Source: a virus
Length of the DNA stretch: 53,650 bases
Strand: one strand, 5' to 3'
Virus record (IMG/VR): IMGVR_UViG_3300005518_000005
Below, piece after piece: positions 1 through 19,230 of the stretch. The notes beneath the pieces are model-generated. The model made no database searches. It had not been told where the DNA came from and saw only the letters and a program-made list of their open reading frames with translations. Made by a program: the position numbers and the translations under genes. Numbering within the stretch: position 1 is the stretch's first letter; each line of letters opens with the position of its first letter.

Positions 1-60
1 CGCTCGGCAAGGTCAAGGACGAGGAACGGGCTCAGTTCGAGGAGCGTTTGAAGCTGCGCC
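1..60. repeat. Terminal direct repeat, left copy (identical to 53591-53650); signature of a circular assembly / complete genome
   Basis: Bases 1-60 match 53591-53650 letter for letter. The scaffold ORF reads through the junction in frame. Confidence 0.97.
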
Positions 61-74
61 ACCCCGGCGGTTGA
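1..74 (+). CDS. Scaffolding protein, C-terminal tail (continuation of 52669..53650 across the junction; first full codon at 3, stop TGA 72-74)
   Basis: The frame is continuous with the open ORF at the window end (..KDYYKRLALGKVKDEERAQFEERLKLRHPGG*). Confidence 0.7.
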   Translation, partial: LGKVKDEERAQFEERLKLRHPGG

Positions 75-127
75 GCCTCGCTCGCCGCCTTGGGGTGCCC
101 CAACGCGCAACCTCAAGGAGAGCTACC

Positions 128-1180
128 GTGAAGAAGTTCCAGTTCACTGCCATCAGTGCAGCCCTCGGCGCGTTCGTACGCGACGCATTCACCCGCGCGC
201 ACGACGCGTTCATGGCCGGCCCGGCGCATCGCTTGGGCCTCGTGGCCTACGCCGGCGTGCCGCGCGCCTCCGGCGTGCCCGACTACGGGCCGGCGGGCAC
301 GATCAACTTCGACCCCGAGGTCTACTCGGGCAAGCTGGTCGAGAAGTTCTACAAGGCCACCGTGTTCGGCGAGATCGCCTCGACCGACTACGAGGGCGAC
401 ATCGCGGGCTTCGGCGCCCAGGTGAAGATCCGCACGATCCCGGACGTGACGGTCTCGGACTACGTGATCGGCGCGGGCCTGACCGCGCAGTACCCGACGA
501 ACCCCTCGGTCACGCTCGCGATCGACCAAGCCAAGTCGTTCAACGTGGCTCTGTCCACGGTCGACAGCCGGCAATCGGACCTCGACCTCGCGGACGTGTT
601 CGCGAACGACGGCTCGATCCAGCTCAAGATCGCGGCCGACGCCGACATGCTCGAGACGATCCCCGCCGAGGTGTCCGCCGACAACAGTGGCACGACGGCC
701 GGCGCCGACTCGAACAACATCAACCTGGGCGACTCGACCACGCCGGTCGCGGTGGACAAGACCACCGTGGTCGACTTCATGGTCGCGTGCGGTCAGGTGC
801 TGGACGAGCAGAACGTCAGCGACGAGGGCCGCTGGTTCGTGGCCTCGCCCGCGTTCATCGCGGCGATCAAGAAGTCGGACTTGCGCATCGCGTCGCTGGC
901 TGGTGACGGCGTGTCGATCGCGCGCAACGGCAAGGTGGGCGAGATCGACCGGTTCACGGTCTACCAGTCGCGCAACCTGCTCAAGCAGACCTCGCCCGGC
1001 CCGGCCGAGTACATCATGTTCGGCCACAGCGCCGGCCTGACGTTCGCGAGCCAGATCGTGGAATGTCAAATGATTGATAATCCAAATGACTTTGGCTACA
1101 TCATCCGCGGCCTGATGGTCTTCGGCTACCAGGTCATCGGCGCGAACTACGTCGGCACCGCGGTGGTCAAGGTGACCTGA
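128..1180 (+). CDS. Major capsid protein (GTG start at 128; alternative TTG at 71)
   Basis: AAGGAG at 115-120 lies 7 nt before the in-frame GTG. The product is 350 aa with high GC3. It sits directly after the scaffold gene and before a terminator-bounded small gene. Size and composition are typical of coat proteins. Confidence 0.85.
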   Translation: MKKFQFTAISAALGAFVRDAFTRAHDAFMAGPAHRLGLVAYAGVPRASGVPDYGPAGTINFDPEVYSGKLVEKFYKATVFGEIASTDYEGDIAGFGAQVKIRTIPDVTVSDYVIGAGLTAQYPTNPSVTLAIDQAKSFNVALSTVDSRQSDLDLADVFANDGSIQLKIAADADMLETIPAEVSADNSGTTAGADSNNINLGDSTTPVAVDKTTVVDFMVACGQVLDEQNVSDEGRWFVASPAFIAAIKKSDLRIASLAGDGVSIARNGKVGEIDRFTVYQSRNLLKQTSPGPAEYIMFGHSAGLTFASQIVECQMIDNPNDFGYIIRGLMVFGYQVIGANYVGTAVVKVT

Positions 1181-1246
1181 TCCCGGTAGGATGGGGCCTT
1201 CCCCGGCCCCGTCTTCCCGCGCATCCTCAACGCAACAGGAGTTCCC

Positions 1247-1447
1247 ATGAAGACCAGCAACCCCTACGGGATGTCGATCCCGGTCAAGGTTCCGCCCGAG
1301 ACGATCCAAAAGGAGATGTCCCAGGCATCGGGCAAGGCCAAAGCCCGCTACCCGGACACCCCGATCCCCGCCAAGCAGGACAATCCCGCGCAAGGCAAGA
1401 TGGGCCGTCGTGCCTACACCCCCGGCACCACGCCGAGCGGTTCCTGA
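1247..1447 (+). CDS. Small hypothetical protein downstream of capsid gene (possible head accessory)
   Basis: AGGAG upstream of the ATG. 66 aa, Pro/Lys-rich, good GC3. A strong terminator follows it. Confidence 0.6.
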   Translation: MKTSNPYGMSIPVKVPPETIQKEMSQASGKAKARYPDTPIPAKQDNPAQGKMGRRAYTPGTTPSGS

Positions 1448-1472
1448 TTTTTCCCTGAGCAGAAGCCATTTT

Positions 1473-1498
1473 CCGGCGCCCTCGCGGCGCCGGTTTTT
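1473..1498 (+). terminator. Rho-independent terminator after the capsid / small-gene unit
   Basis: 8-bp GC stem CCGGCGCC / GGCGCCGG with a 5-nt loop, followed by TTTTT (1494-1498). Confidence 0.75.
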
Positions 1499-1513
1499 CA
1501 GCAGGAGCCCGCT

Positions 1514-1699
1514 ATGGCGAAGATGCCGATGAAACCCCCGATGAAGCCTCCGATGAAGATGTCGATGAAGACCTTCGAGAGCTCGAAGTTCGACAAGGAG
1601 GCCAAGGGCGAACCCGAGGGCTCCAAGGCCGACAAGGCGCGCGACAAGAAGCAGCTCGCCGCGATCAACAAGAAGCGCATGGCGAAGGCCAAGCACTGA
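1514..1699 (+). CDS. Small highly basic protein with PMKP repeats (hypothetical)
   Basis: AGGAG upstream of the ATG. 61 aa: MAKMPMKPPMKPPMKMSMK.. followed by a Lys-rich tail. Codon usage fits the genome. Confidence 0.6.
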   Translation: MAKMPMKPPMKPPMKMSMKTFESSKFDKEAKGEPEGSKADKARDKKQLAAINKKRMAKAKH

Positions 1700-1726
1700 T
1701 CCCCGACCCGTTCACCCGGAGCCTCC

Positions 1727-2164
1727 ATGAACAACGCCCAAGAGTCGAACCTCTCGCAAGCCCTGCGCAATCGGAAGAAGCAGGACAAGCGCTACCCGCA
1801 CATCGTCAACGTCGACAACGGCCGGCTGCTGCCGAACACGGAGAAGCTGCGCGCGCACCCGAAGTACCGCGTGTACGCCGGCCCGACCGGTCCCGAGGTG
1901 ACGAACGAGCAGCGGCTCGCCTGGGTGCAGGGCCTCATGGAGCGCAACCCGATCAAGGTCGTCAACACGACCGCCGAGATCTTCGACATCGCGAAGGCGT
2001 CGAGCGAGGATCTCGTCGCGTTCGCGCTCGACCAGTACGGCGCCGCGCTGGACGCGACCAAGCCCGCGGCCGCGCTGCGCCGCGAGGTCGCGGCGCTCGC
2101 CGGCCTGCCGGCGCAGGAGATGCCGGTCGCGAGCGGCACCGGCCTGCTCGAGCCGCTGGTCTGA
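1727..2164 (+). CDS. Hypothetical protein (head module)
   Basis: GGAG 5 nt upstream of the ATG. 145 aa, high GC3. Confidence 0.7.
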   Translation: MNNAQESNLSQALRNRKKQDKRYPHIVNVDNGRLLPNTEKLRAHPKYRVYAGPTGPEVTNEQRLAWVQGLMERNPIKVVNTTAEIFDIAKASSEDLVAFALDQYGAALDATKPAAALRREVAALAGLPAQEMPVASGTGLLEPLV

Positions 2165-2176
2165 TCGGCACCCGCC

Positions 2177-2824
2177 GTGCTCGCCTCCGACATCCTCGAC
2201 GAAGCGGCGACCCTGCTGCTCGACACCGCGCACCGCACGTGGAGCGCGGACGAGCTGCTCGGCTACCTCAACGAGGCGATGCGCGCGACGGCGGGCGCGA
2301 AGGCGGACTTCTACACGGTGCAGAACGAGAGCTTCGCGCTCGCCGCCGGCCTCCTGCAGACGCTGCCCGCGGACGGCATCGTGCTAATGAACGTGATGCG
2401 CAACAGCGACGCCACGGGCGGCCGCATCATCTCCCAGGTGGACTCGTCGCTGCTCGACGAGTCGGCGCGGTTCTGGCCGGCGTCCACGCAGGAGCTCCAA
2501 GTCGAGCACTTCACGGCCGACCCGCGCAACCCGCGGCGCTTCAAGGTGTTTCCGCCGGCTGCGCTCGGCGCGACGGTCGAGATCCTCTACAGCGCGGTGC
2601 CGCCGCAGATCATGTACGCCGCCGAGGAGCTGTCGGTGTCGGACGCCTATCAGGCGCCGCTGCTCGAGTTCGTGCTCGGGCGTGCGTACGCGAAGAACTC
2701 GAAGCGGCAGGACTTGGCGAAGGCCAGTGGCTTCACGGCCTCTTGGGGCCAGCGACTCGGCCTCAAGGCCAGCGCGCAGGCCGCCGTGGCGCCGAAGGTT
2801 GCCGTCTCACCGGGAGTCGCGTGA
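2177..2824 (+). CDS. Virion structural protein, head-tail adaptor-like (putative)
   Basis: GTG start. 215 aa. Its stop overlaps the next start (ATGA at 2822-2826). Position is downstream of the capsid gene. The function is a positional guess. Confidence 0.7.
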   Translation: MLASDILDEAATLLLDTAHRTWSADELLGYLNEAMRATAGAKADFYTVQNESFALAAGLLQTLPADGIVLMNVMRNSDATGGRIISQVDSSLLDESARFWPASTQELQVEHFTADPRNPRRFKVFPPAALGATVEILYSAVPPQIMYAAEELSVSDAYQAPLLEFVLGRAYAKNSKRQDLAKASGFTASWGQRLGLKASAQAAVAPKVAVSPGVA

Positions 2825-8663: not shown

Positions 8664-9636
8664 TACCATTACGTGGGCCAGCAGCGGCAACGGGACAAAG
8701 ACGGGCACCGCCGCGGCCAATTTTTTCGACGATCTCGATACGCTGATCACCTCGAAGGCTGGCGATTCGACTTTCAAGTGGCAGAAGGCCGGCAAGAACT
8801 CTGCGGCCACGCCCTTCTGGCTCCTGCTGAGTCGCAAGGATGCCAGCGTAGGTCGTCTCCTGATTGTTTGCTGGACGAGCGCACCGGCCGGCAACAACGC
8901 TGCGATCTTGGACGCTGCTCCGACAACGAACCAGATCCTGATTGCTTGGTTTCCGCAAGGGAATGCGAACACCGCGAGCAATCTGACGGCATCGAGCGGC
9001 ACGATTGCCGGCGATGACACCAACGCCGTCAAATGTGCGCCATTCGCATCGGTCGCGACGGGCTATGCTGCGAACTTAGTACCCTTCTACTTCGACAGCA
9101 CCGAAGGCATGGTGTTCGGCACTGGAAACCCCGCGGCTGCATCTTCTTCCTACATGATGGGCGCCGGGGCCCTTCTCGTTGATGCGAGCGACAACGCCTA
9201 CGATTGCACTTTTGGTCTCGCATCCAGCGCGAGCACCAATCTCGGCTCCGCTGCTTCTTCTCCAATGCCGTGGTCAGCAACGACGCCAAACGCGGGGTCG
9301 GCGACTGCGGTAGTTCGCACGAATTACGGCGCAACGAATCGGGCCTACTTCATGTCTTGGTTGCCTTCGGGGGTCTGGGCAAACCAAGCCATCGGCTCCG
9401 CCGACATCCTCACGGATACCTCGGTAAGCCGCGCGTGGTTCGTGCCCGTGCAATTGCTCGGGCAAGTGAAGGGTGAGGGCTTCGTACTGAAGTGGCGTCA
9501 GATCGGCTTCGGGCCCGGCACCACAGGGCCTTACTCGGTCTACAACACGACGGGACCTGTTGTCGCGGCTCGGCAATTCTGCAATGCGACCGCGGGGACC
9601 ACGGGGGCCCCCTGGATGGTGAATTTCAAGATCTGA
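8656..9636 (+). CDS. Putative distal tail fibre / receptor-binding protein
   Basis: 326 aa, Ser/Thr/Ala/Gly-rich, in a lower-GC segment. It sits directly after the fibre N-terminal motifs. Confidence 0.7.
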   Translation: MSSTITWASSGNGTKTGTAAANFFDDLDTLITSKAGDSTFKWQKAGKNSAATPFWLLLSRKDASVGRLLIVCWTSAPAGNNAAILDAAPTTNQILIAWFPQGNANTASNLTASSGTIAGDDTNAVKCAPFASVATGYAANLVPFYFDSTEGMVFGTGNPAAASSSYMMGAGALLVDASDNAYDCTFGLASSASTNLGSAASSPMPWSATTPNAGSATAVVRTNYGATNRAYFMSWLPSGVWANQAIGSADILTDTSVSRAWFVPVQLLGQVKGEGFVLKWRQIGFGPGTTGPYSVYNTTGPVVAARQFCNATAGTTGAPWMVNFKI

Positions 9637-11642: not shown

Positions 11643-13970
11643 ATGGCGCTCGGTATCGGTGGAGCAGCGGCGGCCGGGCTGGAGTCCGGCTTCAACATGG
11701 GCCTGCGCGCCGACGAGGCGGCAGAGACCCGGCGGCGCAACGCCGCGACCGAAGCGCGGCAGTCGCGGCTCGACCAGCAGCAATCCGACCTACTTGCGCG
11801 GCAGACCTCGCAGCAGGACCAAGACCGCGCGCTCGCGGCCACGCAGCAGGAGATGAGCGACCACGCGGTCGCGGGCGCCGGGCTCGCGGCGCAGTACGGT
11901 GGCGCGGCCAACATCCCCGGCGACGTCGGCCAAGCCTACGCGGTCAAGGCCCAGGAGATCAGCACGCGCCGCGCGGCACTGCTGCGCCAGCGCTATCAGC
12001 CGATGGTCGACAGCGAGCAGCAGTGGGCCAAGGACACGGCATCGCGCATCTCGGCCGGCCAGATGAGCATGGACGACCTGAGCCCGGCCGACACGGTGCG
12101 CCTGATCCAGGCGACCTCGCGCCGGCCCGTGGCCGACTTCCTCGCGCCGCAGGACGGCAAGTCGCGCGTGCGCCAGTCGGTCGACGACGCCACGGCGGGG
12201 CTGGAGACGAAAAACCCCGGGCTGATGTTGCAGGGCGCCGGCAGCCTGATGGCACCGGAGCTGCAGACAGGCCTCGGCCACGTCACGAGCGACGGCAGCC
12301 AGATCGTCAAGAAGGATCTCTACGCGCTGCTGCCCGCGCCCGCGCAACAGGGCGGCATCCGCCCGGCGCCCGTGCAGGGCCTCGCCGCGGCGCTTGACGC
12401 GGCCACCGCGCCTTCGGTGAACGGCCGCCCGCAGCCCCAGCCGCTGCAGCCCGGCACCGACCCGGACAAGGTCATGCCGGTGCTGCAGGTGACTGCGCAG
12501 CACCCGGACGGCACCGAGGTGACCTACCACGCCCCGGTGACGCTGGGCCGTGGCACGGGTGCGGACGACAACGTCGCGCCGCCGCTGTCCATCAAGGACA
12601 TGATGAACCGCATGGGGCAACTCGGCACGCTGGAGCAGTGGGCGAACACGCCCAAGGCGCGCGCCAAGATCGAGCAAGGCCTCAAGGATCTCGGCAGCGA
12701 TGCAAACTCGTTCCTGGGCGCGTACTACGCGATGCGCGGTGACGCGAAGGCGCTGCTGCCGCCGGGCAGCACCGACCCGACATCGCAGCGGATCGCCGCG
12801 ATCAAGAAGCTTGCGGATTCCGACTTCGGCGGGGACTTCCAGGCGGCAGCGCAGGCGTTTGCTGGGAAGATCCCAGGCGGGATTCAAGCCAAGCTCGACG
12901 CGATCGACGCTGATACGGACTTGACGCCTGAGCAGAAGCTCCAGGCGAAGCGTGTGACCTACGGCATCGAGAAGGTCGCGGCGCCGAAGGCTCCGGGTAC
13001 CGTCGACATGACCCCCGAGGCGATCGAGCAAACAGCGCGCGCCGCGCTCAAGGACCGTAATGCCCTGATCGGCATCGGACGCGATCCGAACAAGGTCACC
13101 ACGGTGCTCAACAAGATGGCCGAGATTTCGCCGGGTGGCGACATCGCCGGTAGCCGCGCGCTGTTCGGCGCCGACAAGAAGTCCCTCGACAAGATGATCC
13201 CGCAGTACGACGCGGTGACCTCGTTCGAGAACAACACGCTGCAGCAAGGCAAGGTGCTGGTCGGCCTCGCGAAGAAGGTCGACACGACAGGTATCCCGGT
13301 GGCCGAGCGCTGGATTCGTGTAGGTCGACAGGCCGTGGCGGGTGACCCGGACGTGACCGAATTCAACACGCAGATCCAGCTCTTCGGCAACGAGGCGGCG
13401 AAGATCCTCACGAACCCGAACCTCACGGGCGTACTCAGCGACTCGGCTCGCCACGAGGTGGCCGGATTCCTGCCGCGCAGCGCGAGTGCGGCGCAAGTCG
13501 AGCGTGTCGTCAACCGGCTTGAGAACGACTTCGAGATCCGGCGCAAGTCGATCGAGGATCAGGTCGGCACGATCACGAAGCGCATGGCCGATCGCATGCC
13601 GGCCACGAGCAGCGCGAGCGGCCTGACCGGTGGCGGCGGCGGAAGCGAGACGAAAGTCAGCCCAGCCGATCAAGCGTCGCGCGACACGGATCGGCTCGGC
13701 ATTCTGCAGCAGGAACTCGACGGCGCGCAGCAGCGGCTCGCCAAGGGTGATGCACGGGCACAAGGCGATATCGACGCGCTCAACCGCGAGATCGCGGCGA
13801 CCCGCAAGACGACGCCGGCCGCCCGCGCTCCTTCCGCAGCGCCGGCTGCGGCGCCGGCTGCGGCGCCGGCCGGCGCCCCGAAGCGCATCGCCACGGATGC
13901 CGACTACAACGCGCTGCCGTCCGGCGCCACGTTCGTCGGCCCTGATGGCAAGACCCGGCGGAAGCCCTGA
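11643..13970 (+). CDS. Large internal virion / ejection protein (775 aa)
   Basis: ATG directly after TAA. Long high-GC3 ORF with an Ala/Pro-rich C-terminus. TGATG overlap with the giant ORF. Confidence 0.8.
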   Translation: MALGIGGAAAAGLESGFNMGLRADEAAETRRRNAATEARQSRLDQQQSDLLARQTSQQDQDRALAATQQEMSDHAVAGAGLAAQYGGAANIPGDVGQAYAVKAQEISTRRAALLRQRYQPMVDSEQQWAKDTASRISAGQMSMDDLSPADTVRLIQATSRRPVADFLAPQDGKSRVRQSVDDATAGLETKNPGLMLQGAGSLMAPELQTGLGHVTSDGSQIVKKDLYALLPAPAQQGGIRPAPVQGLAAALDAATAPSVNGRPQPQPLQPGTDPDKVMPVLQVTAQHPDGTEVTYHAPVTLGRGTGADDNVAPPLSIKDMMNRMGQLGTLEQWANTPKARAKIEQGLKDLGSDANSFLGAYYAMRGDAKALLPPGSTDPTSQRIAAIKKLADSDFGGDFQAAAQAFAGKIPGGIQAKLDAIDADTDLTPEQKLQAKRVTYGIEKVAAPKAPGTVDMTPEAIEQTARAALKDRNALIGIGRDPNKVTTVLNKMAEISPGGDIAGSRALFGADKKSLDKMIPQYDAVTSFENNTLQQGKVLVGLAKKVDTTGIPVAERWIRVGRQAVAGDPDVTEFNTQIQLFGNEAAKILTNPNLTGVLSDSARHEVAGFLPRSASAAQVERVVNRLENDFEIRRKSIEDQVGTITKRMADRMPATSSASGLTGGGGGSETKVSPADQASRDTDRLGILQQELDGAQQRLAKGDARAQGDIDALNREIAATRKTTPAARAPSAAPAAAPAAAPAGAPKRIATDADYNALPSGATFVGPDGKTRRKP

Positions 13971-16900
13971 TGGGTTGGCAGGACGCCCCCGTCGTCGAGG
14001 ACACCCCGCCGGCCGCCAAGCGCCCGGCGTGGATGGACGCGCCCGAGGTGAGCAGCGCCTCTGGCTTGAACGAGCCGCAGGACACGGGCGCCGCGGCGAT
14101 CCCGGTCAGCGCGACGCAGACCTATGGGCAGGCGCAGCGTGCGCGCGCCGCGACGGCTGCGCCCCCGCCGCCCCCGGCGACGTTCGGCGACAAGATCGTC
14201 GGCGCGATTGATGCGGGTCTCAACATCGTGCGCCAGATGTCCCCGGTCAACGTCGTCCGAGGTGTCGTGACCGGCAAGATGACGCCGTCAGAAGAGGTGG
14301 TGGCGCACACTGGCACCGCGCTCACGACCGGCGCGCTCGGCATGGCCGGTGGTTTCCTGGGCGGCGTGGCCGGCAATGTCGCGGCGCGAGCCGGCGGTGC
14401 ACCGACGCCGGCCCCGGGCGCTGACATCGGCATCGAGCAGGCTGCGACCGAGGGCGCCGAGAAGCTGACTTACGCGCCGCGCAGCCCGGAGGCCCAGCGC
14501 ACGGTCGAGCAGTACGTGACGCCGGTCATGCAGGCCGCGGCGCCGCTGATGGGCCACATGGGCGAGGTGGGCGCCATCCACACGATGACGGGCGCCGCGA
14601 AGACCAAGGCCGGTGGCACGGTGCCGATGCTGCGCGACACGGCGGCCGAGATCGTGCCCGGCGTGCGCGACACCGCCCAGGTGGCGGCCGACTTGGCGCG
14701 TGAGCGCAAGATGAACGCGCCCGAGAACCAGGGCATCGTCAACGCGATCGACGCCGGTTACAAGGTCACCCAGAAAGCGGGCCGTGGCGCGAAGCCGGCG
14801 CAGATCGTCGAGACGATGGCGGGCCGCGCCCGGACGGCGCAGGAGATGGCGGCGCACAACGCCGAGAACACCGCCAAGCTCGCGCGGCAGGACATCGGCG
14901 TGCCCGACGACACGGCGCTGACGCCTGAGGTCACGAACGAGGTCCGCGAGGAGGCCGGCAAGGCGTACAACGTGCTCGATCAAGTCGGACGCGTCGACCT
15001 CGACGACCAGTTCCGCGCCGACGTGCAACGCGTGGCCGAGCCGTTCATCAAGGGCGGCGAGGACTTCAAGACGCTTGCGGAAAATCCGATCATCCAAGAG
15101 GCGCAAAACCTTGCGGTCGATTCGGCGGATACAAAATCGATAACCGCTGTCGTCAGGAACTTGCGCAACGAGGCGAACAAAGCCTTCCGGGCCGATGACA
15201 AGCAACTCGCTACCAGCTACCGCGCGCTCGCCGAGGCAACCGACAACGCGATGAGCCGCGCGCTCGACCGCGTGGAGCAGGCCGACCCCGGCCGGCTCCC
15301 CGAGGGCGCGATGGACGCGTACCGCGCGGCGCGCGTGCGCATCGCCAAGAGCTACCTGCTCGACGACGCGATGAACGGCAAGCCGGGCGAGGTCGATGCC
15401 AAGGTCTACGGTCGCGCGCTGCGGAAGAATGTCCCGTTGAGCGGGCCGGGGCGCCAGATCGGCGAGTTCGCCAACCAGTTCGGTGAGGAGGGTCTCGCCA
15501 AGAAGAAAGGTCGCTCCGGCGAGGTCGGCCCGACGTACCACGACATCGTGCTGGCCGCGCTGCACGCGGCGCGCGGCGGGCTCGAGGCGGTGGCGACGGC
15601 CGGCGCGCGCCCGGTGGCTCGCGCGATCCTCGGCAGCGAGCTCGTGCAGCGCCGCCTGCGCGCCCGCGCTGCCGGCGAGCTGCCGGCGCGCGAGCCCGTG
15701 GCGCCGCCGGCCGTGCCACCCGAGCCGACCACGTCGCCCGGCGCCGCCCCGGAGCCGCCCGAGGGCGGCGGGGGCGGCGGCACGCCGCCGAGCCCGCTGG
15801 GCGACCTGACGCCCGACTGGGAGACGACCGGGCTGGTACGCCCGCTCGACGAGGCGCCACCCACGACCGGCAGCCGCCGCGCGCCGCTGGAGATCCCGGC
15901 CGTGCCGGGCCGGCCCGACTTGCCCGACACGATGGTGGTCGGGCGGCCGGGCGAGGTGGCGGCGAGCGAGGCGGCCAACGCGGCGATGGGCGAGCCGGGC
16001 GCCGTCGCAGCGCGCCGCGCGCAGGAGGCACCGCCGCCTAACCCGAAGCTCGCCGAGGTTGAGCGGCTGAAGGCGTCGACGCAGTCGCCCGCGGTGCGCA
16101 AGGCGCTCGACGAGCACGCCGCGGCGCTCAAGGCCGAGGACGCCCAGCGCGAGGCCGCACGGCAGCGCGTGGCCGACGCGGCCGAGCTCGACCGCACCGC
16201 GAGCAACACGCTGGACCCCGAGCTGCGCAAGCGGCTGCGCGCGCAGGCCGACAAGCTGCGCGGCGAGAAGCCCGAGGCCGGCGGCAAGGCGACCGAGGGC
16301 CAGCCCGAGATCAAGACCGAGAAGCCCGGCAAGATCCCGGTCGGCAAGGCCACCGAGCTGGCGGTCGAGCGGATCGAGCCGGAGGGCGACTTGCCGGTGG
16401 GCGAGGCGACCGAGCTGCCGGTGGAGTACGTCGAGCCCAAGGGCTGGCGCGAGTCGTTCAAGCTCGGCGAGGGCGACGCGCAGCGCGCGCACCGCGTCGC
16501 GGCGGCGCTCGCCAAGGACGCCGACGCGGTCGAGGCCGCGGCTCGCCAGCACGAGAACAGCCCGCGCGCCTTCGACCGCGCGATCGACCAGATTCTGGAG
16601 AAGACCGATGAGAATGCGAGCGGGCGCGCTGCTCAAGGCGGCGAAGGCGCTGGTGCCGGGCGGCCCGGCGCAGAAGCAGGCGCCGAACACCAGCGCGGTG
16701 CAGCAGCTCCAGCCGCTGGCGAACGCGCCGGGGCCGAACGCGCTGCAGCGCCCAGAGCCGAACGCGGTGCAACCGAGCCTGCCGGCGGACAAGCGGCAGG
16801 TGGCGCGAAAGCCGATGCTGGGGTAGACCATCGGGCGCACATGGGCGCGCAGCTTCGAGCATCCAACAAGCTCAGGGCAATGGCCGAGGAGGCGCGTGCT

Positions 16901-18871
16901 CGCGGTGATGAAGGAGAACGCACCCGCCTGATGACCGAGAGCCGCAAGCGGTTTGATCTGGCGATGCAGCATCAGGAGGCGCTGCTCACCGAGCAGAAGA
17001 AAGCCGCTGCCGCGGCCAAGCGTGCGGCTACGCGCGAGGCCAAGAAAACTGAGGGTCTGCCCGGCTTCGAGCCGGGGGACACCCTCGAAAAGTTCGGACC
17101 TCGGGGGATGAAAGGCAACGCTTGGGTGCTTCGCGAGAAGGCGACCGGCAAAGCCGTGATGGAGACGAGCGACCCTGCGAAGGTGCGCGCACTCAACACC
17201 GAGAAGTACGAGGCCGTGCCGATCGGGCAGCACCTTGCCGAAACCAACGCCGCGGCAGGCCGCGGCGGCGTCGAGATCCGCGAGGTGCCCGGCGGCTTCG
17301 ACGCCTACAAGGACGGCAAGAAGGTCGGCTACCTGCGCGACAACCTCGAGCGCGGGCAGGCCGAGCAGCTCGGCGAGAACGCGAGCGTCGACATCGTCAA
17401 GGTCGACAAGGACGTGCAGGGGACCGGCGTCGGTCGCGCGCTATACGAGGCGTTCAACGAGAAACACGGCGGCCGGATCATGCCCAGCGGCAAGACCGAG
17501 CCGCCCGCGTGGAAGCTGTGGAAGCGCAACTACCCGGAGAAGGTCGACATCTTCGTGAAGCAGGAGGCGCAGCGCATCCGCGCCGGCGCTGATCGTCAGC
17601 TCGTGCTCGGGAACATCAAGGATCCCGAGATCGCTCAACGCGTAGCCCAGGAGGCCGCAGATGGCACAAGTCAACGACAACGCAGTCAGCCCGGTGATGT
17701 ACGGCAAGGCGGTCAAGCCCAAGAAGGGGCGCAGCCCCGCCGTATCCTCGAAGCTCGTCAAGGCGAAGAAGGCGGCCAAGCGAAAAACGCCCCCGGCAGC
17801 GCAGCAGCTCGCGCTGCGGACCTAAACGACGAGGTTTTCAAGAAGGGCGACGCAGACTTTGAAGCTGCGGGCCCTGTCGTTGACGGTCTTCGTGTTCGTG
17901 ACTCGATCCCGAACACGGGCTCGATTCGATCTTCTTTCGAGAACTACGAAGTGCTGCCCGGCGTGCGCAAGGTTCCGCGTTCGGCTTTCAGCGCACCGCC
18001 TGCAAAGCCTTCGGCGCGCGTGCTCAAGCTCGCAGAGGAGATCCAGAGCAACGGGGAACTGAACCCTCTCATTGTCGTCGACGACGGGCACCCCGATGGG
18101 CTCTATGTTCTGGAAGGCGCGCATCGTTTCGACGCGCTCGACGCGCTCGGCAAGAAGGAATTCCCGGCCATTGTTGTGCGAGACCTCGACACTTTGTTGG
18201 AGCGCAAGGGCGGCGAGGCGTTCAAGCCGGTCGGCAGCGCCGAGGCGATGGAAGGCGTGCTGCGCGCGAAGTTCGGCGACAAGCTGATCCAGGGGCTGCT
18301 CGACCAAGGGCTGCTCAACATGATCGCCAAGGCCGACGACGTGCGCGAGGCGCCACCCACCGCGAAGGCGGTCTTCCGAGAAGGCCCGCGGCCCGGCGCG
18401 ACGATGTTCTTCGACAAGCTCACCGCCGAGGAGGCGCCCGGCGTGCTGATGCACGAGCTCGGCGAGCACTTCGGCATCCGCCGGCTGCTCGGCGACGACC
18501 GCTACCGCGTGATGTTGGGCGAGCTGCGCGACATCCGCAACGAGCCCGCGGTGCGCGAGGCATGGGATACGGTCAAGCGCAATTACAAGCTCGACGAAGA
18601 AGACCCGAATTTCCTGCGCGAGGTCGCGGCGCATCTTGTCGAGACGCAGCCGGATCTGCCGTTCGTGCGCCGGCTCGTCAACGAGATCCGCGCGTACTTC
18701 TACCAGCACTTCGGCACGACGATGGGCAACCGCGTGGATGCGAGCCTGATCCGCGGTCTCGCCGCCTCGGCGCTGCGCAGCGCGGCCAAGGGCGAGCTCA
18801 CGCGGCGGCCGATGCGCTTCGACCGAACCCCGATCCCTCAACGACCCGGCCCCCGGCCGATGCTGCAATGA
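13970..18871 (+). CDS. Giant virion-associated polyvalent ORF (1633 aa) with a GNAT-like segment and a ParB/Srx-like domain
   Basis: The frame is uninterrupted. VDIVKVDKDVQGTGVGRALYEAF resembles GNAT motif A (QxxGxG). NPLIVVDDGHPDGLYVLEGAHRFDAL resembles a ParB N-terminal domain. Two linker stretches have poor GC3 in this frame (see the nested ORFs). Confidence 0.7.
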   Translation: MGWQDAPVVEDTPPAAKRPAWMDAPEVSSASGLNEPQDTGAAAIPVSATQTYGQAQRARAATAAPPPPPATFGDKIVGAIDAGLNIVRQMSPVNVVRGVVTGKMTPSEEVVAHTGTALTTGALGMAGGFLGGVAGNVAARAGGAPTPAPGADIGIEQAATEGAEKLTYAPRSPEAQRTVEQYVTPVMQAAAPLMGHMGEVGAIHTMTGAAKTKAGGTVPMLRDTAAEIVPGVRDTAQVAADLARERKMNAPENQGIVNAIDAGYKVTQKAGRGAKPAQIVETMAGRARTAQEMAAHNAENTAKLARQDIGVPDDTALTPEVTNEVREEAGKAYNVLDQVGRVDLDDQFRADVQRVAEPFIKGGEDFKTLAENPIIQEAQNLAVDSADTKSITAVVRNLRNEANKAFRADDKQLATSYRALAEATDNAMSRALDRVEQADPGRLPEGAMDAYRAARVRIAKSYLLDDAMNGKPGEVDAKVYGRALRKNVPLSGPGRQIGEFANQFGEEGLAKKKGRSGEVGPTYHDIVLAALHAARGGLEAVATAGARPVARAILGSELVQRRLRARAAGELPAREPVAPPAVPPEPTTSPGAAPEPPEGGGGGGTPPSPLGDLTPDWETTGLVRPLDEAPPTTGSRRAPLEIPAVPGRPDLPDTMVVGRPGEVAASEAANAAMGEPGAVAARRAQEAPPPNPKLAEVERLKASTQSPAVRKALDEHAAALKAEDAQREAARQRVADAAELDRTASNTLDPELRKRLRAQADKLRGEKPEAGGKATEGQPEIKTEKPGKIPVGKATELAVERIEPEGDLPVGEATELPVEYVEPKGWRESFKLGEGDAQRAHRVAAALAKDADAVEAAARQHENSPRAFDRAIDQILEKTDENASGRAAQGGEGAGAGRPGAEAGAEHQRGAAAPAAGERAGAERAAAPRAERGATEPAGGQAAGGAKADAGVDHRAHMGAQLRASNKLRAMAEEARARGDEGERTRLMTESRKRFDLAMQHQEALLTEQKKAAAAAKRAATREAKKTEGLPGFEPGDTLEKFGPRGMKGNAWVLREKATGKAVMETSDPAKVRALNTEKYEAVPIGQHLAETNAAAGRGGVEIREVPGGFDAYKDGKKVGYLRDNLERGQAEQLGENASVDIVKVDKDVQGTGVGRALYEAFNEKHGGRIMPSGKTEPPAWKLWKRNYPEKVDIFVKQEAQRIRAGADRQLVLGNIKDPEIAQRVAQEAADGTSQRQRSQPGDVRQGGQAQEGAQPRRILEARQGEEGGQAKNAPGSAAARAADLNDEVFKKGDADFEAAGPVVDGLRVRDSIPNTGSIRSSFENYEVLPGVRKVPRSAFSAPPAKPSARVLKLAEEIQSNGELNPLIVVDDGHPDGLYVLEGAHRFDALDALGKKEFPAIVVRDLDTLLERKGGEAFKPVGSAEAMEGVLRAKFGDKLIQGLLDQGLLNMIAKADDVREAPPTAKAVFREGPRPGATMFFDKLTAEEAPGVLMHELGEHFGIRRLLGDDRYRVMLGELRDIRNEPAVREAWDTVKRNYKLDEEDPNFLREVAAHLVETQPDLPFVRRLVNEIRAYFYQHFGTTMGNRVDASLIRGLAASALRSAAKGELTRRPMRFDRTPIPQRPGPRPMLQ
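16608..16826 (+). CDS. Nested +1-frame ORF (72 aa) inside a linker of the giant ORF
   Basis: GGAG at 16597-16600 lies 7 nt before the ATG. GC3 is clearly better than in the host frame over the same bases. Ends with TAG, 14 nt before an in-frame ATG (16841) of the host frame. Confidence 0.45.
   Translation: MRMRAGALLKAAKALVPGGPAQKQAPNTSAVQQLQPLANAPGPNALQRPEPNAVQPSLPADKRQVARKPMLG
17661..17825 (+). CDS. Nested +1-frame ORF (54 aa, very basic, KAKKAAKRK) inside a linker of the giant ORF
   Basis: AGGAGG lies 6 nt before the ATG. The product is MAQVNDNAVSPVMYGKAVKPKKGRSPAVSSKLVKAKKAAKRKTPPAAQQLALRT*. High GC3, while the host frame here is AT3-rich. Not in the track because it is under 60 aa. Confidence 0.45.
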   Translation: MAQVNDNAVSPVMYGKAVKPKKGRSPAVSSKLVKAKKAAKRKTPPAAQQLALRT

Positions 18872-19230
18872 GCCGTGGAGACTCTGAAATGGAAGACTCG
18901 GGGCCGATGCCCCTTTCTCGCCGAGCGTCCGATCATCGCGGAGTCCACAAGTGGTTTCGCTTTGATCCGACGCTATCGACCGGTGCATTGCTGCAGACGG
19001 CGACGATTCTCGTCAGCGTGGGCACCTTCTACGGCGCGTACGTGCGCGACCAAACACAAGTGCGCGCCGACGTCACGCAGATCCAAGAAATCCAGAAGCG
19101 CGACCGCGCCGACGTGGAGAAGGTCGCCGAGCGACTCGGTGGGGATCTGAAAGAAATCAAGAACGACGTCAAGGAGGTGGGGCTCAAACTCGCCGAGATC
19201 CGCGGCCAACAGCAAGGTAGCAAGAAATGA
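18868..19230 (+). CDS. Membrane-anchored coiled-coil protein (i-spanin- or holin-associated type, hypothetical)
   Basis: ATGA overlap with the giant ORF stop. One TM segment (ALLQTATILVSVGTFYGAYV) is followed by a charged coiled-coil-like tail. Confidence 0.65.
   Translation: MSRGDSEMEDSGPMPLSRRASDHRGVHKWFRFDPTLSTGALLQTATILVSVGTFYGAYVRDQTQVRADVTQIQEIQKRDRADVEKVAERLGGDLKEIKNDVKEVGLKLAEIRGQQQGSKK

Follow-up and report, generated by a model that had tools for sequence, protein, structure and literature searches.

In a virus genome of 53,650 nucleotides (IMG/VR virus record IMGVR_UViG_3300005518_000005; "the window" in the following, by which the whole stretch of DNA analysed is meant) one giant open reading frame (ORF) encodes a protein of 1633 amino acids (aa), in which several modules are joined by linkers. 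Two of these linkers are read from DNA that carries in the +1 frame a small ORF, n1 and n2 respectively, each with a start codon and a Shine-Dalgarno (SD) sequence of its own (Table 1). From the sequence and its conservation we infer that n1 and n2 are likely to be genuine embedded overlapping genes, expressed from their own initiation sites, which the giant protein reads out of frame as linkers. In what follows the frame of the giant ORF is referred to as the host frame and that of n1 and n2 as the nested frame.

The nested frames and their start signals

An initial annotation of the window had noted that the giant ORF (13970..18871) is stop-free, that two SD-led ORFs lie within it in the +1 frame, and that the GC content at third codon positions (GC3), judged by eye, switches to this frame in the linkers. 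All three observations hold, including the coordinates, lengths, starts, stops and SD spacings of both small ORFs. The GC fractions at codon positions 1/2/3 over n1 are 0.77/0.52/0.93 for the nested and 0.93/0.77/0.52 for the host frame; over n2 they are 0.60/0.47/0.85 and 0.87/0.60/0.47, respectively. With codon log-odds trained on nine other window genes, n1 scores per codon +0.48 in the nested frame versus −0.33 in the host frame, and n2 +0.39 versus −0.18, the ordinary modules of the giant gene scoring +0.5 to +0.64. When all long high-GC3 ORFs on both strands of the window were scanned, the only regions flagged as frame switches were 16601-16856 and 17621-17816, besides one shadow ORF opposite the portal gene. 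The low GC3 at 17830-18200 is that of the lower-GC ParB-like module, where the signal is weak in every frame, and is not a frame switch.

The n1 peptide (MRMRAGALLKAAKAL...NAPGPNALQRPEP...LPADK...) is rich in Pro, Gln and Ala. Used as a tblastn query, it matched L002 and L003 in the +1 frame of big genes, whose host proteins are ~41-45% identical to that of the window; in both the nested ORF runs from just past the FDR.I motif of the host ORF to the first residues of the GNAT-like module. Further loci came from a scan for the GNAT-like module, from a protein profile search and from a degenerate DNA pattern search of metagenomes (43 matches to the pattern for PGPTALQRP, ~35 of them by chance and 8 true n1 loci). 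The 17 homologues thus collected are from independent metagenome assemblies, and in 17/17 the surrounding long ORF is homologous and has n1 in its +1 frame. Every one of the 18 family members is located just after the FDR.I motif, the modules downstream differing by lineage, and the family shares the motifs M(R/K)(M/L)(K/R)xSxLLxAAKAMP ... SPLQQFAP ... NPGPTALQRPEP ... LPADK. This comparative evidence favours genuine overlapping genes in the linkers, one of the four options that the initial annotation had listed without a choice between them.

Homologues of n1 with a clear N-terminus have ATG or GTG at one aligned codon and an SD-like motif 5-10 nucleotides (nt) upstream of it. The first codon is only ATG or GTG, while the third residue varies between M, L, I and V. 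In the ten homologues tested the SD-like motif is found at the same place, with duplex energies against the anti-SD of −4.3 to −8.0 kcal/mol; the SD of the family is thus at least as strong as those of the ordinary gene starts of this phage (−1.7 to −5.9 kcal/mol).

For n2 seven homologues were found, with the motif SPV(V/L/M)YGKK and the same +1-frame layout; they come after the equivalent module in L001/L006, L003, L007, L008, L009 and L063. Each of the six examined for starts has ATG or GTG and an AGGAG-type SD, and in the homologues tested the SD duplex energies range from −5.8 to −10.3 kcal/mol. The stop codon of n2 is TAA in the window and TAG in L001, that is, it was changed and not lost. 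In one contig, L017, homologues of n1 (159-476) and n2 (486-617) directly follow one another in one +1 frame, no host module lying between; for this reason n1 and n2 may once have formed a pair of genes into which the GNAT-like module was inserted later.

Two candidates were discarded. L016 had appeared to contain a free-standing n1 between two genes and was rejected, there being a run of N just upstream and a host frame that is open through n1. The TGA at 16609-16611, which forms ATGA with the start codon of n1, was considered as an old upstream stop in the +2 frame and was dropped, as the +2 frame has no coding signal.

Paired assembly or sequencing indels would be able to fake such frame switches, the true genes then being ordinary ones, either separate or one in-frame gene. 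Apart from this general possibility only a frame break elsewhere in the gene of L007 points that way. L001, a close relative from a different sample with 89-97% nucleotide identity, has an open host frame and intact n1 and n2, with no indel at either boundary; the same frames are found in the 17 n1 and seven n2 assemblies, and the architecture recurs in ~20 independently assembled contigs (from ENA, JGI, Logan, IMG/VR and NCBI). The option of assembly indels, which the initial annotation had left standing, is thereby refuted, and we give it practically no weight.

The conserved starts also bear on programmed +1 frameshifting, by which ribosomes would change frame near 16600 and 17655 and terminate at 16826 and 17825, giving truncated isoforms (the N-terminal module with an n1 tail). 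Frameshifting is known to be stimulated in some cases by SD-like elements within ORFs, prfB and dnaX being examples; upstream of n1 the +1 frame has no stop as far back as 16071 in the window and over 26-106 codons in other lineages, and M versus V at the first n1 codon is readable as a conservative residue change. However, the 25 nt before n1 differ between the homologues and contain no slippery motif common to them, no host-frame stop or rare codon is found at the site, the aligned first codon is restricted to ATG and GTG when the third is free to vary, and an SD spacing of 5-10 nt suits initiation and not the 3 nt of prfB-type +1 shifts. Moreover, an unrelated cassette, phrog_2423, which belongs to a free-standing family with its own start, occupies the same position in some relatives (see below). 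What has been kept is the start codon with its SD, instead of a slippery site or a host-frame stop, and we judge frameshifting to be very improbable.

A known case of frameshifting in a structural module is that of the tail assembly chaperones G and GT of phage lambda, where a programmed −1 shift requires a conserved slippery heptamer and leads into a second frame without a start of its own. The present case is similar in that two frames would be in use at a single structural-module locus and that phages have conserved the arrangement; it differs in that n1 and n2 have no conserved slippery heptamer and do have an independent start.

Selection on the overlapping frames

When homologous loci were aligned under guidance of the nested frame, the amino-acid identity was 0.56 in the nested versus 0.38 in the host frame for n1 and 0.39 versus 0.30 for n2; under guidance of the host frame it was 0.50 versus 0.38 and 0.37 versus 0.33, respectively. 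For n1 the nested identity exceeded the host identity in 45/45 pairs. Codon changes that are synonymous only numbered 565 in the nested versus 132 in the host frame for n1, and 121 versus 42 for n2. Among the 35 gap-free codon columns of n1 24/16/32 are variable at nested positions 1/2/3. The least variable of these, nested position 2, is host position 3, which is therefore the opposite of what selection on the host frame only would leave behind. The GNAT-like module, taken as a control, gave the opposite pattern, with an identity of 0.78 in the host frame versus 0.54 and with 400/320/1033 differences at host positions 1/2/3.

The same is seen over a short distance between the window and L001. 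Upstream of 16600, 13/19 substitutions are at host position 3; inside n1, 8/15 are at host position 1, which is nested position 3, and seven of the n1 substitutions leave the nested protein unchanged, one the host protein. Taken together, these patterns indicate purifying selection on the nested frame of n1 and, with a weaker signal, on that of n2.

The selection bears on another proposal, namely that at least three formerly separate genes were fused and that n1 and n2 are dead remnants, fossil gene ends of which only the linker reading still matters. The nested frames do have genome-typical codon usage and the host reading looks off-frame, as is to be expected if the nested frame is the older one; the module indels relative to L001 lie exactly at the nested stop; and the selection signal of n2 is modest. 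Yet a dead remnant should have lost its ATG and its stop in some lineages, whereas start, SD, stop and motifs of n1 are kept in 18 lineages with host proteins only ~35-45% identical, and start, stop and motifs of n2 in eight; and the third nested position is the most variable and the second the least. The initial annotation had spoken of a recent fusion with fossil termini, which in this form is wrong; with host proteins 35-45% identical the arrangement is old, and the nested frames are under purifying selection. That n1 and n2 are fossils appears to us most improbable. A fusion in the distant past is plausible as the origin of the arrangement, because the nested frames carry genome-typical codon usage, and for this same reason the small genes would be the older frame and the linker reading the derived one.

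The host frame also appears to have left its mark on the small genes. It is open across the overlap in all lineages, and host-frame stops are rare because host position 1 coincides with nested position 3, which is GC-rich. T is found at 19/1236 nested third positions (1.5%) whereas the ordinary codons of these genes have T at 9.1% of third positions (pooled Fisher P 6e-27, a significance that is overstated since the loci are not phylogenetically independent). The depletion is observed at 12/12 loci, with 0/126 in the window, and does not extend to A. Linker 1 of the window has neither a T-initial host codon nor a stop. The depletion fits selection against T-initial host codons (stops and bulky residues) and would be a signature of dual coding.

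We therefore favour, for n1 and n2 as embedded genes, the following mechanism. Ribosomes coming from 13970 would read straight on and yield an Ala/Gly/Glu/Arg-rich linker, and ribosomes binding at the internal SDs would start at the internal ATGs and yield a Pro/Gln/Ala-rich protein of 72 aa and a Lys-rich protein of 54 aa. The giant protein would accordingly consist of modules joined by disordered linkers, two of which are the −1 reading of n1 and n2, and the end of each small protein would fall precisely on the beginning of the giant protein's next module. The small genes were probably there first, and the long protein then extended itself by threading through them. The arrangement would be stable because the small genes almost never use T at third positions, so that neither a T-initial host codon nor a stop arises.

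The coincidence of nested stops with module boundaries can be seen in another way, which is compatible with n1 and n2 being genes: their translation would deliver ribosomes to the next module, of which free copies (free cargo) would be made by termination-reinitiation, the peptides themselves being secondary. The nested stop falls in every lineage on the first residues of the next module. In L002 (~8693-8696) and L005 (~8893-8896) it overlaps a host-frame GTG as GTGA, in L001, L003, L007 and L008 a host-frame GTG follows 10-13 nt past the stop, and in the window the host-frame ATG that the initial annotation had placed 14 nt past the TAG of n1 is indeed there, at 16841. But this ATG is not preceded by a strong SD, and after n2 the window has, as also annotated, no host-frame start between 17826 and the ParB-like domain, the first being a GTG at 17951, 125 nt downstream of the stop and already inside the domain. 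Furthermore, the n1 peptide is itself conserved, which is needless for a pure coupling ORF. Coupling as the main function of n1 and n2 is in our view unlikely; in addition to the synthesis of the small proteins, termination at the module boundary may re-initiate free copies of cargo modules.

Several results weigh against n1 and n2 being genuine genes. Neither has a match to a Pfam or PHROG family, which in the case of Pfam is true also for the homologues, and no clear case of a free-standing copy of either was found among the relatives, so that the case for an ancestral independent existence is made by codon usage alone. AlphaFold2 (seven sequences; pLDDT 66.7, pTM 0.18) predicts n1 to be largely unstructured with only a short N-terminal helix, because of which its function is not readable from the sequence. 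The selection signal of n2 has the same direction as that of n1 but is weaker: its codon positions 1/2/3 hardly differ in variability (29/28/33 of 36 columns), and the substitutions between the window and L001 are 3 to 3 between the frames. Codon-order shuffles leave the host frame open in 26-100% of trials, its openness thus being largely a by-product of high GC3; given these shuffles we considered openness by itself too weak as proof of selection and used the depletion of T at third positions instead. Finally, internal initiation could be restricted by the ribosomes that are translating the giant ORF.

The linker slot and its precedents

In L005 (8726-8896) and L012 (1334-1507) the slot of n1 is taken by an unrelated +1-frame ORF with its own SD and ATG, located before the GNAT-like module. 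This ORF is a full-length member of phrog_2423 (E 1.3e-20 for L005), a family represented in isolate phages by small free-standing genes next to those for portal or head morphogenesis, and annotated as "virion protein" in Pbunavirus. The phrog_2423 ORF thus shares with n1 the linker slot, the +1 frame and the initiation signals, and it is small and, like n2, basic. It differs in that the isolate phages have it free-standing and not embedded, and n1 and n2 are outside its profile (no match at E<=1). We note that the host-frame reading of the phrog_2423 ORF in the slot (GVQQERVQGDEGR..AEAGGGDRVQR) recurs in P0010, P0012 and P0015, which suggests that these carry the same nested gene.

An identical 14-mer, GGAGAAGACCGATG, comprising SD, spacer and ATG, precedes the unrelated nested ORFs of the window (16597-16610) and of L005 (8715-8728). 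The two are distant relatives, and their sequences upstream of it are otherwise unrelated. The 14-mer may be a shared cassette junction or a translation-initiation region. In L010 and L011, which are low in GC (0.46-0.48; positions 1000-2400), the GNAT-like module is part of a long ORF without nested ORFs or Ala/Gly-rich linkers, and the embedded-gene arrangement seems to be confined to high-GC lineages.

As to function, our guess is that n1 and n2 are produced along with the giant protein and serve as small accessory proteins, either virion-associated or in assembly/ejection; it is based on the fact that the slot of n1 holds in some relatives a member of phrog_2423, annotated elsewhere as a virion protein. 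More tentatively, and with considerable doubt of our own, we suggest for high-GC phages in general that modular ejection proteins grow by threading through small genes, which they annex as disordered linkers, the slots being sites for exchangeable cassettes. With GC-rich, T-free third positions a small gene would automatically be stop-free in the −1 frame and could therefore be annexed as a linker and still function. That the slots are exchangeable is suggested by the common slot of n1 and phrog_2423, by the 14-mer shared by the window and L005, and by the module indels relative to L001 that begin at a nested stop. If true, this would be a general and so far undescribed way of gene fusion without gene loss, and would imply a hidden reservoir of small virion proteins.

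Within tailed phages the closest precedent in architecture are the embedded spanin genes Rz/Rz1 of lambda and 18.5/18.7 of T7, in which both products are made from one late mRNA (PMC5295617, PMC6139136). There, too, a larger phage gene contains in its +1 frame the whole of a small gene for a Pro-rich protein, complete with a start of its own. The host gene described here is, however, probably one for virion or ejection and not for lysis, the embedded genes are in linkers between modules, and the long ORF is apparently the derived frame. Since there is no Cys, and thus no lipobox, in n1, n2 or any of their homologues, they are not o-spanins.

A linker with dual coding is known from hepatitis B virus, where the spacer of the polymerase overlaps preS (PMC9093120). 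In both cases a disordered tether between domains shares its DNA with another protein in another frame, the dictates of which it tolerates. The hepatitis B virus genome is that of an animal virus, very small and extremely compressed, whereas here two small genes, each with an SD, are found in a double-stranded DNA phage of 54 kb, which has no evident reason to be compressed.

Overprinting is known from phiX174, gene B lying in A and gene E in D. For overprinted genes of small viruses the ancestral frame has been identified by codon usage (PMC3744397, PMC8227390). As in these, the DNA in the linkers is dual-coding, with one frame genome-like in codon usage and the other compositionally odd with a disordered product; there the short ORF is usually the new one inside an old long gene, whereas here the short ORFs look older and the linker newer.

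The giant protein with its shuffled modules resembles the polyvalent proteins of phages (Iyer, Burroughs, Anand, de Souza, Aravind 2017; PMC5512222): candidate effector modules (ParB-like, GNAT-like and, in relatives, zincin-like) would be combined on one virion-module polypeptide. Embedded linker genes are outside the concept as described; the words "overlapping", "frameshift" and "linker" do not occur in PMC5512222, and a literature search for embedded genes in internal virion, ejection or polyvalent proteins turned up nothing specific.

Gene callers forbid genes inside genes, which explains why protein databases have hardly any entries for n1 and n2: among 5.8 billion proteins, profile searches returned six called copies of n1 and two of n2, and those that could be located are all on short contigs. 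By tblastn of an n1 homologue against isolate phages no match was obtained, the family being known from metagenomes only. The n1 and n2 families are thus conserved across many environmental phages and yet missed by annotation, and phage genomes of high GC may commonly hide small proteins of this sort. Dual coding would be readily tolerated in the disordered linkers of modular virion proteins, with the unusual feature that the long ORF and not the short one appears to be the derived frame. In practice, anyone who codon-optimises the giant gene or recodes it synonymously would destroy two conserved genes without noticing. Conversely, single-base changes exist that disable one frame and are silent in the other, so that the contribution of each product is separable.

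The giant protein and its neighbourhood

The content of the window resembles that of a whole phage genome, with large terminase, portal/adaptor, primase and a family of internal virion proteins, and within the structural block a gene of 775 aa precedes the giant ORF. The N-terminal part of the giant protein is similar to "putative internal protein C" of Xanthomonas phage PBR31 (tblastn, 28% identity, E 3e-18), the only similarity obtained to internal core proteins of the kind of T7 gp16. From the gene order and from this match to an annotated internal protein we infer a location of the giant protein in the virion. Against 50,697 phage records the giant gene gave no match by megablast, and the giant protein gave by tblastn only short and distant module matches.

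Table 1. Coordinates in the window of the giant ORF, its modules and linkers, and the embedded genes with their SD sequences
Feature	Position	Strand	Remarks
Giant host ORF	13970..18871	+	1633 aa, stop-free throughout; modular protein, putatively of the internal-virion/ejection type
N-terminal module, host frame	13970..16607	+	ends in conserved motif ...SPRAFDRAIDQILEKT; host GC3 0.8-1.0
SD-like GGAG of n1	16597..16600	+	7 nt before ATG; anti-SD duplex −6.4 kcal/mol
Linker 1 of giant protein	16601..16856	+	host-frame (−1) reading of n1; Ala/Gly/Glu/Arg/Pro-rich, low complexity
n1, putative embedded +1-frame gene	16608..16826	+	72 aa; ATG start; stop TAG at start of next module
Module X, in-frame, window-specific	16828..17266	+	447-nt difference from L001; starts right after n1 stop
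GNAT-like module, host frame	17267..17660	+	VEIREVPGGFDAYKDGKKVGYLRDNL...DPEIAQRVAQEAA; 62-94% identity in relatives
Linker 2 of giant protein	17621..17816	+	host-frame reading of n2; Gln/Gly/Arg/Glu/Ala-rich
SD AGGAGG of n2	17649..17654	+	6 nt before ATG; duplex −10.3 kcal/mol, top ~2% of giant-ORF positions
n2, putative embedded +1-frame gene	17661..17825	+	54 aa; ATG start, TAA stop; very basic, MAQVNDNAVSPVMYGKAVKPKKG...KAKKAAKRK...
ParB-like module, host frame	17828..18205	+	core ~17866-18205, not in L001; lower GC3; codon log-odds 0.16
C-terminal module, host frame	18206..18871	+	..LMHELGEHFG..; 94-96% identity in L001; also in P0003, P0005 and L007

Homologues of the giant protein (n=16) range from 976 to 1892 aa; they have in common an N-terminal module of ~880 aa and differ in their C-terminal modules, the shuffling of modules between relatives being clear. 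For the N-terminal module no PHROG family was found; the motif at its end is kept in P0003-P0013. In L007, at ~990-1050, the N-terminal module is in two frames (ORFs 3..1049 and 784..2718), which may reflect either a genuine split or a frameshift introduced by sequencing.

The labels "GNAT-like" and "ParB-like" of the initial annotation are reasonable, although the Pfam hits on which they can be based are weak, both being below the gathering score. For the GNAT-like module the acetyltransferase matches have E values of 0.0045 (Pfam) and 0.05 (PDB); for the ParB-like module they are 0.0028 for Pfam ParB_N and 4.7e-5 for ParB family proteins in PDB. Module X matches phrog_25603 at aa 1051-1094 and has a lower codon log-odds score (0.25); segments like it are found in proteins of F116-like Pseudomonas phages and in P0003.

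L001 is without two in-frame blocks of the window, one of 447 nt from just after the n1 stop and the other the ParB-like module after n2. At the first indel (window 16828-17266; L001 12902-12909) there is an imperfect microhomology of 8 nt, GGGGTAGA versus GGCGTCGA. At the second (window ~17866-18205; L001 13475-13496) the ParB-like module is gone at a repeated FKKG(D/G) junction. With their lower GC3 and codon scores the window-specific modules look as if they had been imported recently.

The C-terminal modules contain zincin-like motifs, in the window the variant HELGEH (18350-18420) and at the C-termini of P0007, P0009, P0011, P0013 and P0016 the canonical HExxH, as HEI(M/L)HH. They may be the counterpart of the processing peptidase known as a module of polyvalent proteins.

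The 3′ end of the giant gene is overlapped by a mechanically called ORF of 222 aa (window 18562-19230), the real start of which is probably the ATG at 18889 (MEDSGPMPLSRR...). From this start the ORF matches the 116-aa gene that comes after the giant gene in L001 and that has a hydrophobic stretch. Lysozyme/endolysin-type genes come after the giant gene in L002, L003 and L005, and because they do so in several relatives, a lysis cassette probably starts downstream of the giant gene.

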